From: a virus
Lineage: Duplodnaviria; Heunggongvirae; Uroviricota; Caudoviricetes
Length of the DNA: 46,256 nt
Strand: one strand, 5' to 3'
Virus record (IMG/VR): IMGVR_UViG_2579779052_000002
The notes beneath the pieces are model-generated. The model saw only the letters and a list, made by a program, of their open reading frames with translations, did no database searches and was not told where the DNA came from. Positions 4,083 through 15,815 of this stretch are shown here, piece by piece. The position numbers and the translations under genes were made by a program. Each line of letters begins with the position of its first letter. Position 1 is the stretch's first letter.

Positions 4083-7000
4083 TCAGCTGATACTGATGCC
4101 TGCGGTGGCTTTCTTCATCACCACAACCAGCAAATCGCTGATACTTGCTGTGGGATACCAGTTATTCACCAGCCATGCTGACACCGAAAACTCCAGTGTC
4201 ATGTGACCGTGACCGGCAGGCATATCAATAACACCACTGTAAATCAGCGTATTATCCAGCGCGGTACGGTTATAAATTTCAGCACCGTTTTTCCGCACTA
4301 TCAGACGGCATGAGGAGTAAATATCAGTATGCTCTTTCTCATGTTTAGCGCCGCTGAATGCCACCGCCGGAATAACAATCTGCCGGTCAAACGGCTGATC
4401 GTCATAAACCCTGACGGTAATGGTCCCTGATGGCCACCGCTCCGGTGCACGGGAGTCCCGGGGGAAAGCTTTGCCCACTGTTTTAACGAGATCGCCTTCA
4501 ATCTGGTTCGCGGACAATTTTCCCAGAACCCGACAGTTCTCGTTAATCGTGACGTTGTTGAGCGTCCCGGAGTTCGCATTCACGTTACCGCTGATATCGG
4601 CATTTTTCGCCGTCAGCCGCCCGTCCGGTGTCAGGGAAAATGCCGGAGGATTACCGCCGCTGGTAATGGTGGGAGCCGTCAGATATTTCAGGAACACTTC
4701 ATTCATAAATATCTGATCGCCCTGACCAACAAACATCGGCTTTGTGTTGCCATTCGCAGGATTAATCATCGCAATCCTGTCTGCCGCCAGCAGCACCTGA
4801 CTCTGCATTCCTGCTGGCGTATTCTCAATACCGGCACCGATACCCGCAATATAAAGGCGTCCGTCCTGCATCTGCTGCAGTTTCACGGCCCACATGCTGT
4901 TCAGGTTATTATTTGTATCAACCTGAACTTTCTGTATCTGCTGGATTGCCGCACTCTGATTTTCCAGTTTTTTATTGACGGTCTGCGTGATTTCATTGCT
5001 GACATTCGTAATGGACGTCCTGATTTCAGCCAGGTCCGGCGCAAGCTGACCGTTATCAATCTGCGTCCACAGCTCCTGGGCCAGATGTGTTTTCCCGATT
5101 TCTCCTTTGAAAAAATCCAGGTAACCTTCCGCATCATCGCTCGCCCGACCGACAGCCTCCACGAATGCCGATTTGCCAACAGTATTCACACTGCGGATAT
5201 AAAAATAATAATCATGGCCCGGTTTGATATTGATACTGGCAGCTATCCAGTACAGCGCCGAGCCAAGATAGCGGGCTGCGGTTTCAATCTGCCTGATATC
5301 CGCAATCCGCTTTTCCGAGAACCAGAACTCAAACTGTACCGTCGGGTCATAAACGGCAAGATGCGGCGTGGCGGTTATCTGAAAATAGCCCGGCGTCAGC
5401 TCAATCCGCGACGGTGCTGCCGGTGCGGCAATCCGGAAGGTGGTGGTGGCAGGTTCACCCTGCTGGCCATAGCTGTTTATCGCCCGCACCGTCAGGGTGT
5501 ATTCCCCGAGCGGCAGGCCGCTGAAACGGTTCTCCGTGTCTGCGGTGATGGCGGTGGTCACCAGTCTGGCATCCGTTCCCTTACCACTGGTCAGGCGCAG
5601 ACTGAAGCGCACACCCTTCACCACCCGCGGCGTGTCCCATTTCGCCTGCGCCAGATACTGGCCGTCAGCTGCGCTCACCTCCACCGTCAGGTGCTGCACT
5701 GCCGGTGGGATGACGCTGTTCAGGGAACCTGACTGCGGCTCAAAGCGGGCACCGTTATCCACGATGGCTTCTTTTTCCGGTACGTGCTGCACCGCCGTGA
5801 TGGCAAAGGTGCCGTCCGTGTTTTCCCGGACGGAGACACAGCGGAACAGGCGACGGCGCAGTGACGGCAGGGAGAGTCCCCACACCCCGTATGTCTCCAC
5901 ACCATCAGGCAGGGTACTGACCTGTATCCGGTCCGGCGCGGGGTGTTCGGTGATGTCCACACTCACTGGCTTACCGCTGCCGTTAATCAGGTTCACCGTG
6001 GCGGCACCGGTCTCCGGAAGTGTCACTTCACGGTCCAGCGTCAGGGTGCGGGTGGCAGCATCAATGGACAGGACACGTCCGCCGGTCAGGGTCCCGGCAT
6101 AGTCGTTATCACAGATTTCAATGATGTCACCGGGTGTGTGCCGCAGCCCCTGAGACCCGAGCGTGAAATCCACCGTCTGCGTTTCCAGCAGTTCGGTCTT
6201 TATCACCCACAGTCCGGCACGGTGGGCCTGACCGCGGCTGGTACAGCCGAACGCGTCCATCTTCAGCAGGTTGCGTCCGTAGCGCAGTATGGCTTCCGGG
6301 TCTTCCACCAGTTCCGTGGAGGTCTGCCAGCCGTTCTGCGGGTCGGTGTAATTCACCTCCACCGCCGTGTGCCGGTCCTTCAGGGCACTGAAGCTGTAGC
6401 GGAATCCCACGCCGTTATCATCCACCACCACATCGCTGTTGGTGTACGGCCACACCACATCCGACGGGCGGTCCTGAACGAACGTCAGCGTCTGACCGTT
6501 CCATACCGGCATACAGCGCATCGCAGAGCAGAAATCACTGAGAACGTCCCACGCCTTACGCTGTTGTGCCAGGTACGCATTAAAGGTCATCCGCGGCTCG
6601 GTCCCCCCGAAACCATCCGGGACCGTCTGATCGCAGTACTGCCCGATGGCATACAGCGCCCACTTGTCCACATCCGCCGCCCCCAGACGTTTTCCCATGC
6701 CGTAGCGCGGGTGAGTCAGCATGTCCCACAGGCACCAGGCCGGGTTGTTGCTGTATGCCGGTTTCAGACTGCCGTCCCAGATACCACTGTACGTGCGTTT
6801 TTCCGGGTCATAGTTTGACGGCACCTGGATGATACGACCGCGGATATGGTAGTTCACCGTCATCTGCTGGCCGCCGAACTGCTCCGCATCCACCTGCAGC
6901 CCCACAATGGCCGTGTTCGGGTAGCACTGTTTCACATCGATGATTTCGGTGTATGACGACCACAGCGTCTTATTCTGCAGCTGGTCCGTGGTGCTGTCCG

Positions 7001-7556
7001 CCGTCTCCCTGACCATCCGGATGTTAAAGGGCCGGGGAGGCAGATTATCCAGAATCACCGAGGCCAGGAACTGTGAGGTGGTCTTGCCGTTAATGGTGAC
7101 GTCCTTTTCTGTCACCCAGTTACCGTTACGCTGTAACTGAATCAGCAGGCGGACGGTTGCCGGGTTACGGTCACCCTTTGAGGTGGTCTCCACCAGTGAC
7201 TGCACCCCGAAGGTAACCCGCAGGCGGTCAATGTTCGCGGACGTAATGGTGCGCGTCACCGGTTTTGCCTTCGTCACTTCCACGCCCAGTCCGGTTTCAG
7301 CTCCGGAGGACTCAAAGCCTTCCGGTGGTGTCTGCTCCTGCTCCCCGGCGCGCCAGACCGCCGTCACACCGTGTATCACGGGATTGCCGTCCGTGTCCGT
7401 CAGTGGGGTTTTGTTCACCAGAATACTCTGCAGTCCCTTCACCGGACCTTCTATCGGTCCCTCACCAATCGCATCAATCACGCTCATCATCTGCGTGGAT
7501 TTGAGATTATCCTTCGCCTCACGAGGCGTGTGTGCCTTACCGCCACCTTTTCCCAT
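4083..7556 (-). CDS. J: central tail fiber / host specificity protein J
   Basis: 1157 aa; N-terminus [22 protein letters not shown] and long collinear similarity to lambda gpJ as recalled; GGGGAAGG RBS. Confidence 0.95.
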
Positions 7557-7660
7557 ACAGCCTTCCCCTGAATAAATTAACCGCCACTTGCCATTCCGTA
7601 CAGAAGTCGGATATCCTTCGCCCGAAAAGCATGAAACACATTTCTGCCATGCTAAAGAGA

Positions 7661-7694
7661 AACCCCGGTATCAGCAGATACCGGGGTTTTCTTT
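7661..7694. terminator. bidirectional intrinsic terminator hairpin in I-J spacer
   Basis: CCCCGGTATC-loop-GATACCGGGG stem flanked by A-run upstream and T-run downstream, so a T-tract follows the stem on either strand. Confidence 0.55.
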
Positions 7695-7760
7695 CATGCC
7701 CACCGATAATCCTGTTGGTTAAAACCGGTAATGGCATAAAAATTCTGAATATCTTCACAT

Positions 7761-7789
7761 TTTCACACACTGACTGTGGCGCTTATAAT
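7761..7789 (+). promoter_or_regulatory. candidate sigma70 promoter (TTTCAC-17 nt-TATAAT)
   Basis: Perfect -10 hexamer TATAAT at 7784-7789 with weak -35 at 7761-7766; about 100 nt upstream of a plus-strand terminator. Confidence 0.3.
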
Positions 7790-7860
7790 TTCGCTGCGTT
7801 AGTGTTTTTTTGCCCGAGTAACAAAAACAACTCCTTAACATTGATCTTCATTTGTCTGTC

Positions 7861-7893
7861 CCCGCAGCTCCGCGATCACTGCGGGATTTTTTT
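7861..7893 (+). terminator. plus-strand intrinsic terminator
   Basis: CCCGCAG-loop-CTGCGGG followed by ATTTTTTT on plus strand only. Confidence 0.5.
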
Positions 7894-7898
7894 ATGTT

Positions 7899-8579
7899 TT
7901 ATCCCTGTCGCCCGATAACCACGACCGTTCCGCCCCCGCCTTCATCACGGGTGCTGATGTCCTGGGATATACGGCGGGAGCCAACCAGCATTTCCCCGTA
8001 AGGCACCGGCATCGGGTTCCCCTGGGCAATCATGTTATCCAGCGAGGAAAAGTACGTGTTCTGTCTGCCGTTATCCGTTGCGCGGTAATCCGGTGTTTTT
8101 GCCTTCGGGGCCAGCATCTGGGCCACACCGCCCAGAATCATGCTGGCTCCAAGTGAAAACAGCATCGTGGTGGCAGAAAAACCACCGGCTGCCAGGGCTG
8201 AACCCCATAACGCCATTGATGCCCCGGCAGTGAAGAAAGAGCCCACGATGGCTGCCGCCCCCAGCACAATCTGCAGTCCACCCTTTCCGGCCCCGGCCAG
8301 TCGCGGCACAATATGGATGACCGTTCCCTCACCCAGCTGTTCGTGAAGACGGGCGTACACCGCCTCCGGTGCCGTGTCATAACCGGCAATACGTATCTGG
8401 TACCAGCCTTCGTTCATCTGACGGCGAAAGCCCGGCACCTGTAACGACAGCGCCCGGATGGCTTCCGCTGCCGTGTTCACATACAGGCTGAGGCGGCGGC
8501 CAAATCGTTGTAAATCCCCGTGAAGGCAGATGCGTGCCAGTGGCGGTGACGCCAGACAGAATGCGTTCGTCGTTGCCAT
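7899..8579 (-). CDS. I: tail assembly protein I
   Basis: 226 aa; N-terminus MATTNAFCLASPPLARICLHGDLQRFGRRLSLYVNTAAEAIRALSLQVPGF matches lambda gpI as recalled. Confidence 0.9.
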   Translation of the reverse strand: MATTNAFCLASPPLARICLHGDLQRFGRRLSLYVNTAAEAIRALSLQVPGFRRQMNEGWYQIRIAGYDTAPEAVYARLHEQLGEGTVIHIVPRLAGAGKGGLQIVLGAAAIVGSFFTAGASMALWGSALAAGGFSATTMLFSLGASMILGGVAQMLAPKAKTPDYRATDNGRQNTYFSSLDNMIAQGNPMPVPYGEMLVGSRRISQDISTRDEGGGGTVVVIGRQG

Positions 8580-15372: not shown

Positions 15373-15815
15373 CGTCTCAGTACCTCATCAATGGCCCGGT
15401 TCATCCGCGCAATCGCCACCTGAGCTGCCTGTTCACTGCGCACATCAAACGCCGGGCGCACAAACGGGTGCGGTGGCATATTCACAGTCCCCATTTCCAC
15501 AAACCGCCAGTAGAAAGCATTGCGCGGGTTATCCGCCTTCATAGTGTTATCGCTGTTACCGGTGTCCGGATTAACACCACGGATATGGACACCGGATTCC
15601 ATCCCGCCATCGCGGGAGCGCCGGGAAAGGATCACCACATTGCGGCGCAGTTTTCCCCTGCGTACCGGTGCCCGTGACACCACTTCTTCTTTCAGCACAT
15701 TCGCACCCGCACGGGTTGCCTCACGCAGCACCCGGTTATTTTCCGCACCACTCAGAAGCTGCAAATCGCGGCTGATGTCCTCCAGCCCCGAAAAATCCAG
15801 CAGGGTTTCGATCAT
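15369..15815 (-). CDS. HK97 gp10-like tail completion / head-tail joining protein
   Basis: 148 aa; position and general resemblance to HK97 gp10 family; ATGA coupling on both sides. Confidence 0.6.
   Translation of the reverse strand: MIETLLDFSGLEDISRDLQLLSGAENNRVLREATRAGANVLKEEVVSRAPVRRGKLRRNVVILSRRSRDGGMESGVHIRGVNPDTGNSDNTMKADNPRNAFYWRFVEMGTVNMPPHPFVRPAFDVRSEQAAQVAIARMNRAIDEVLRR

Follow-up and report, generated by a model that had tools for sequence, protein, structure and literature searches.

The window analysed here comprises 46,256 nucleotides of a Caudoviricetes genome (IMGVR_UViG_2579779052_000002). Gene I, encoded on its minus strand at 7899-8579, yields a tail assembly protein of 226 aa with 67% identity to lambda I and matches to tail assembly PHROGs. 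Gene J, the tail tip or host specificity protein, is encoded on the same strand at 4083-7556, and homologous loci are annotated as gpJ in RefSeq. In the order of the late operon, gene I is the upstream and gene J the downstream neighbour of a gap of 342 bp (7557-7898). The corresponding gap in lambda measures 60 bp (I ends at 15444, J starts at 15505) and contains a hairpin only, without the pasB cassette described below. A first-pass annotation, made from the sequence without tools, had given the lambda spacing as about 60 bp and had described a gap of 342 bp without a convincing ORF. The lambda coordinates and those of the window bear out both figures, and none of the four ORFs in the gap (128, 77, 44, and 28 aa) matched a PHROG family.

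Thirteen phage records, for the most part prophages of the PPompW type, contain all 342 bp at 100% identity, and the gap is present in approximately 1445 of 5426 complete E. coli genomes (coverage of 80% or more). Rfam models revealed zero families at gathering score in the entire window (1-46256), with no tRNA and no match to modelled prophage sRNAs such as STnc100, AgvB, and AsxR. A relaxed search at E<=1 over 7000-8500 returned sub-threshold, terminator-like noise only. The PasB family itself is absent from Rfam.

The right part of the gap carries a sigma-70-type promoter on the plus strand (7762-7789), composed of TTCACA (7762-7767), a 16-nt spacer, and TATAAT (7784-7789). Its score of 11/12 is the best of all sigma-70-like matches in the first 20 kb. 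In the first-pass annotation, this promoter had been reported with a shift of one base to the left, as TTTCAC-17-TATAAT (7761-7789). A Rho-independent terminator follows on the plus strand at 7861-7893, exactly where it had been placed before: the arms CCCGCAG (7861-7867) and CUGCGGG (7879-7885) form a 7-bp GC-rich stem with an 11-nt loop, followed by an A and seven U (7887-7893). A terminator of this kind with a 3' U tract is a hallmark of Hfq-dependent trans-acting sRNAs. Read on the minus strand, it is not followed by a U tail and should therefore be no obstacle to late transcription. Terminator-like sites are common, 23 having been found in 20 kb versus 17 expected, and hence the case for an sRNA gene is built on the combination of features, their conservation, and published experiments.

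In the left part, a strong hairpin, AAACCCCGGUAUC-AGCA-GAUACCGGGGUUU (7655-7697, both strands), is accompanied by U-rich tails on either strand. Its arms (7660-7672 and 7677-7689) are perfectly complementary over 13 bp, and folding yields about -25 to -32 kcal/mol with z about -6, irrespective of the strand. This is the bidirectional terminator hairpin previously called at 7661-7694. The remaining J-proximal spacer (7557-7654) is allele-specific and reveals a weak promoter-like site and a resemblance to the 3' end of gene I.

The I-J insert carries pasB

PasB was discovered by Hfq RIL-seq in EPEC E2348/69 and was also detected by RNA-seq (Pearl Mizrahi et al. 2021, PMC8550237). Table S6 of that study lists it as an RNA of 83 nt on the minus strand of NC_011601.1 (1466343..1466261; EPEC O127:H6 E2348/69), located in prophage PP6 between E2348C_1436 and E2348C_1437, and gives AATCCCGCAGTGATCGCGGAGCT as its Northern probe. 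In E2348/69, these coordinates fall between the tail assembly gene and gpJ, and the locus aligns to 7734-7898 of the window almost perfectly, with one difference inside the RNA. Accordingly placed, pasB as published occupies 7811-7893 on the plus strand (83 nt) and agrees with E2348/69 PasB at 82 of 83 positions, while the probe target is matched exactly on the plus strand at 7866-7888. The sole difference is A7837, corresponding to nt 27 of PasB, which is C in E2348/69. Nucleotide 27 is also the position given for the variant PasB-2 by Zhu, Shabalina and Storz (2026, bioRxiv 10.64898/2026.05.13.724894).

The insert carries pasB, an sRNA gene already described, and is not a new feature. The gene is intergenic within the phage structural operon, between I and gpJ, and antisense to both; its 3' end lies 5 nt from the I stop codon, on the opposite strand. 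Zhu et al. (2026) likewise describe PasB as embedded in a phage structural operon and as often the only Pas sRNA of a genome.

The sequence features from which the first-pass annotation had proposed a plus-strand small RNA at about 7795-7895 are real, and their interpretation as an sRNA gene is supported by the match to PasB. The transcript is convergent on the end of I as envisaged, but it stops 5 nt short and overlaps none of the I coding sequence. Promoter and terminator do bracket pasB, whereas the hairpin at 7661-7694, counted among the bounding features, lies outside the RNA. Real sRNA genes can evidently be found from promoter and terminator anatomy alone, even by a reader without tools.

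Expression was studied in E2348/69, where a Northern blot revealed PasB at the predicted size and with Hfq-dependent stability, and where the RNA was more abundant in the non-activating condition (PMC8550237). The same study gives log2 fold changes of -6.8 (padj 2e-40) and -2.4 (padj 4e-6) for PasB in an hfq mutant under two conditions, and 37 RIL-seq interactions with PasB as the sRNA partner. By homology, an Hfq-dependent transcript of approximately 83 nt would be expected from the window copy as well, the expression data themselves referring to the E2348/69 copy only. PasB is one of the abundant Hfq-bound sRNAs which prophages have added to pathogenic E. coli.

Promoter, 5' end and RNA body

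For a comparison of promoters, 42 distinct upstream sequences of PasB-like RNAs were used. The -10 element is kept in the family as NATAAT or TATCAT. The -35 element TTCACA (7762-7767) is not conserved, and the stretch from -35 to -10 exists in at least four unrelated versions. Further upstream lies the motif TTCTGAATATCTTCACATTT (7743-7762, plus strand), of the form TTCTGA-N6-TCACATTT, which is invariant in every promoter-bearing family member at a fixed distance of 21 nt from the -10 and occurs once in the window versus 0.01 occurrences expected. A search for the promoter pattern in one genome per species gave no matches.

We hypothesize that this motif is a binding site for a host activator, since its half-sites can be read as CRP-like (model TGTGA-N6-TCACA) or Cra-like (model TGAA-N4-TTCA). 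With one mismatch allowed, the CRP pattern was found once in the window versus 1.8 occurrences expected, which is not significant, and the assignment of a CRP site by pattern alone was dropped. As this looser pattern is not above chance, the argument for an activator site is solely one of conservation. With a start at 7796, the centre of the upstream site would lie at about -44.5. In class II CRP promoters the centre is usually found at -41.5, three bases less than here. The higher abundance of PasB in the non-activating condition would fit catabolite control, provided that this medium lacks glucose.

The -10 element predicts a start near 7796, at the usual distance of about 7 nt, and an RNA of 98 nt. 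The published 5' end, equivalent to 7811, was derived from read coverage (PMC8550237); it lies 15 nt downstream of the predicted start and 22 nt after the -10. This discrepancy could reflect processing of the mature RNA at the U run, an error in one of the two estimates, or imprecise mapping. The intervening segment, GCGUUAGUGUUUUUUU (7796-7810, plus strand), is a possible 5' leader outside the published 83-nt PasB, and its first six nucleotides, GCGUUA (7796-7801), are nearly invariant across the family. A hairpin at the 5' end was considered as an argument for a start upstream of 7811 and rejected: a conserved pairing of the U run (7804-7810) with the A run was absent from the RNAalifold prediction, and single-sequence folds of the 5' parts were no better than shuffles (z -1.4 to +2). 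Both the conserved upstream site and the 5'-end discrepancy can be tested in simple experiments.

The RNA body is predicted to be unpaired, the terminator being the only stable predicted structure. Within the body, the A-rich stretch GUAACAAAAACAAC (7817-7830, plus strand) can be read as repeated A-R-N triplets. Such motifs are Hfq sites (PMC4104026), and the stretch is a candidate site for the distal face of Hfq. Other body types of the family retain an A-rich stretch (AAGAAUAAU, AAAAAUAAC). It is followed by a predicted unpaired region, CUCCUUAACAUUGAUCUUCAU (7831-7851, plus strand), whose conserved core contains CUCCUUA and UUGAUCUUCAU. We infer that the base-pairing seed lies here, and Zhu et al. 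(2026) suggested a PasB seed just upstream of the terminator. CUCCUUA...UUGAUCUUCAU is conserved in family alignments, in which AUCUUC was fixed by the search pattern, so that the invariance of AUCUUC itself is biased. The terminator stem is likewise invariant and free of covariation; it was fixed by the search pattern, and this test is therefore uninformative. Taken together, an unpaired body, a terminator hairpin, and a U tail represent the layout of an Hfq-dependent base-pairing sRNA.

PasB-like cassettes and the left part of the gap

The first-pass annotation had suggested comparing the I-J spacer across lambdoid prophages. Twelve I-J gaps were aligned, and 141 copies were collected from viral contigs, E. 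albertii, and loci in hand by means of a pattern derived from the 3' portion of the RNA; the cassette proved to be conserved across many prophages. The 141 copies comprise 48 distinct RNA sequences in several body types, and in 129 of them no more than 40 nt separate the sRNA 3' end from the stop codon of gene I, which is encoded on the other strand. Gap sizes fall into classes of ~220-240 bp, ~320-340 bp (the window type), and ~846 bp. An uninterrupted match to PasB of at least 28 nt is present in only 13 of the 48 variants. The blastn search of Zhu et al. (2026) used a word size of 28, and these settings would thus miss most of the family, whose size is three to four times what a stringent BLAST would show.

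Across species, the 3'-part pattern was found only in E. albertii, apart from likely contaminant contigs and two unrelated chance matches. DNA of the E. coli type with I, a PasB-like RNA, and J was seen on the short contigs L016, L019, and L020, which are filed under Parendozoicomonas haliclonae, Streptomyces flavalbus, and a Clostridiales MAG; contamination or mis-binning is the most likely explanation.

Tandem arrangements occur as well. Four PasB-like modules occupy a single I-J gap in IMGVR_UViG_2728369607_000007 (L067; minus strand, 1215 to 320), each composed of TTCTGA-N6-TCACATTT, a -10, a different body, and a terminator, and two modules are found in contig L058 (4417-4692). The papers cited here make no mention of tandem sRNA arrays at I-J. 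In 13 of the 141 loci, belonging to the ~846-bp gap class (e.g., L022 543-1762; L008 1-552), a sodC moron coding for a Cu/Zn superoxide dismutase lies between J and the PasB-like RNA, on the strand of the RNA and upstream of it. These sodC-linked copies are devoid of a promoter, which in most sodC loci was removed by a microhomology deletion. The sRNA would here arise only as the 3' end (3' UTR) of the sodC transcript.

The family extends to RNAs reported earlier under other names. EcOnc22, EcOnc23, and EcOnc24 are Hfq-bound RNAs of ~85 nt encoded in prophages Sp15, Sp14, and Sp11 of E. coli O157:H7 Sakai, respectively, and are destabilised without Hfq (Tree et al. 2014, PMC4104026 Table S2). 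Their coordinates fall in the I-J gaps of these three prophages (L012, L013, L014), and their shared probe has an exact match of 23 nt to the PasB-like body just upstream of the terminator. The published peaks are offset by a constant 160-162 nt from that core in the current assembly, and are shifted by about 130-160 nt relative to the current RefSeq record, which may be due in part to a change of the genome record. All three share with pasB the I-J position and strand relative to the tail genes, the upstream motif, a GCGUUA or GCAUUA start, the UUAAUCUUCAU core, and the CCCGCAG/CUGCGGG-U7 terminator. They differ in having only ~77% identity to PasB over the RNA, with a longest exact run of at most 15 nt, and in the region from the upstream motif to the -10, which is unrelated to that of pasB. 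Judged by sequence, EcOnc22/23/24 are members of the PasB family, and PasB is now tied to these older O157 RNAs. Among the entries of Table S6 available to us (PMC8550237), PasA and PasD are assigned EHEC homologues, and PasB is not. In the available text of Zhu et al. (2026) EcOnc is not mentioned, and a link between PasB and EcOnc is absent from it as well as from that of PMC8550237.

The left part of the gap (7557-7733) is confined to the window allele, and 1442 of 1451 records are at least 99% identical to it. When phages and E. coli genomes were searched in distant mode for diverged relatives, the same allele alone was recovered, and the hairpin and probe sequences, used as text strings in a literature search, gave no results. 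At the equivalent position, other alleles (E2348/69 and an Stx2c phage) and lambda carry a different hairpin, whose T tail is oriented in the sense of the late operon; some paired changes are seen among these hairpins (ATCC/GGAT versus ACCC/GGGT). A hairpin before J hence appears to be ancestral.

The left part could alternatively be a module in its own right. In this case, two tandem sRNA modules would share the gap, and the segment at ~7588-7697 would encode a second plus-strand RNA of ~74 nt, starting from the weak promoter-like site TTGCCA-18-TATCCT (7588-7617, plus strand, 9/12) and ending at the hairpin 7660-7689 with the tail UUUUCUUUC. Besides this site and the plus-strand U tail of the hairpin, several resemblances point in this direction: two to four tandem modules are present in this gap in other phages, the post-hairpin sequence GCCCACCGATAATCC followed by ATAAAAATTCTGA resembles the inter-module spacers of L067, and CCTTCCCCTGAATAAA agrees with a module start at 15 of 16 positions, a score reached by 0 of 300 shuffles. 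However, the left part contains neither the conserved upstream motif nor the AUCUUC core, and promoter matches of 9/12 occur at chance rate. Its similarity to known modules is not significant by BLAST and marginal by Smith-Waterman, the segment is invariant across 1446 genomes and thus gives no comparative signal, and neither a publication nor an annotation was found for it. We consider a second module unlikely. As a homologue of PasB-like modules the left part was rejected, as BLAST returned only the self-complementary hairpin and Smith-Waterman only short matches; for a degenerate second module, the evidence is thin.

Some further observations concern this region. The element GCC(C/A)ACCGATA(A/T)(T)CC is found in the window at 7700-7716, after the big hairpin, and in L067 at ~955 and 505, after module terminators. 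The stretch TAT-CCT-TCGCCCGAAAAGCATGA (7612-7634) agrees with the last codons of gene I (7900-7924) at 20 of 25 positions, 12 of 500 shuffles being as good, and TATCCTTCGCC recurs without mismatch, over 11 nt, within J (7508-7518). From their sequence, the I- and J-like stretches at 7612-7634 may be the relic of an older I-J junction that recombination has left behind. Two variants of the window-type gap were seen in the viral contigs L045 and L115: one carries an insertion of ~1.26 kb at the equivalent of ~7708, between the hairpin and the pasB promoter, and in the other 7646-7688 is deleted, so that most of the hairpin is lost.

A broader reading of the locus can be offered tentatively. The I-J gap might be a site dedicated to the insertion of sRNA cassettes from a large and rapidly diversifying family, including PasB and EcOnc22-24, in arrays of up to four, which would combine one activator-dependent promoter (TTCTGA-N6-TCACATTT, possibly under CRP or Cra) with swapped bodies and seeds; the left half of the window gap would possibly be a second module. 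If this is true, a single nutritional signal would be linked by the prophage to host targets that can be exchanged.

Mode of action and relation to known systems

We consider it very probable that 7743-7893 is pasB in the form of a self-contained moron cassette, whose RNA likely acts by Hfq binding and trans-pairing. Equipped with a promoter and a terminator of its own, the cassette lies between two conserved late genes and is absent from lambda. Located directly after the I stop codon, it points against the late operon. In the lysogen, where the late operon is silent, the sigma-70 promoter (-10 at 7784-7789) would drive plus-strand transcription up to CCCGCAG...CUGCGGG-U7 (7861-7893), giving an RNA of about 83-98 nt. 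This RNA would present an unpaired body, with the A-rich stretch and the core CUCCUUA...UUGAUCUUCAU, ahead of the terminator hairpin with its U tail. PasB would bind Hfq and, through the unpaired core, pair in trans with host and prophage mRNAs. The RIL-seq data from E2348/69 fit such Hfq-dependent trans-pairing.

Between I and J, the late transcript is complementary to PasB over the entire length of the small RNA, and the position of PasB right after the I stop is kept in 129 of 141 copies. Both would suit an RNA that acts mainly in cis, pairing after induction with the late tail mRNA to alter its cleavage, its stability, or the translation of J, with trans targets being secondary. Yet ~37 different RNAs pair with PasB in the RIL-seq data of PMC8550237, and in the window allele the J ribosome binding site is ~250 nt away from the paired region. 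Furthermore, the body is highly variable among phages while the position is kept, which fits interchangeable trans seeds better: as any antisense sequence stays complementary, a variable body in a fixed position disfavours a role in cis. A predominantly cis-acting PasB is quite improbable on these grounds.

That the insert represents inert debris from a mobile element or from past recombination, with promoter and terminator as chance matches, is extremely unlikely. The left part does weakly resemble the 3' end of I and the 5' end of J, possibly as recombination scars, but the right part is an RNA gene detected experimentally (PMC8550237), and the cassette is found almost only at I-J, in 1-6 places per genome, tracking the number of prophages. 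Neither terminal repeats nor a transposase were found; the origin from a known mobile element, which the first-pass annotation had named as an argument against its own proposal, is contradicted for 7743-7893. Hardly credible is a small protein encoded in the gap by the 128-aa ORF 7532-7918 (plus strand) or the 77-aa ORF 7537-7770 (minus strand): both ORFs exist and one phage record annotates a hypothetical protein here, but neither matches a PHROG family, both run across hairpin, promoter, and terminator, indels of 1-7 nt and replacement of whole segments among related alleles would break any frame, and the sampled genomes have no RefSeq annotation at the gap.

Several known systems can be compared with the window copy. 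Closest is PasB of E2348/69 itself, with identical promoter region and terminator, the same I-J position, and the same antisense orientation. It differs in its surroundings, a gap of 240 bp with a different J-proximal hairpin, compared to 342 bp with the larger two-way hairpin and ~100 extra bases beside J in the window.

AgvB and AsxR (Tree et al. 2014, PMC4104026; RF02702, RF02703), anti-sRNAs from EHEC prophages, are likewise short and Hfq-binding; each is transcribed from its own promoter to its own terminator, is conserved in the 3' part and variable in the 5' part, and has a fixed insertion site in lambdoid phages. In contrast to pasB, they are located downstream of the Q-dependent PR', near stx and the lysis genes, and measure 51-60 nt. 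The RF02702 and RF02703 covariance models gave no match to the window at the gathering threshold and none at E<=1 over 7000-8500. AgvB was rejected as the identity of the window RNA, as it occupies the PR' moron site and not the tail operon (PMC4104026). PasB is not known to act as a sponge. Morons of lambdoid phages are exemplified by sodC in the tail region (Juhala et al. 2000, as cited in PMC4104026). Like these, pasB is a separately promoted and terminated addition to the late operon, located between two of its genes, absent from lambda, and expressed from the prophage; unlike them, it yields an RNA and not a protein.
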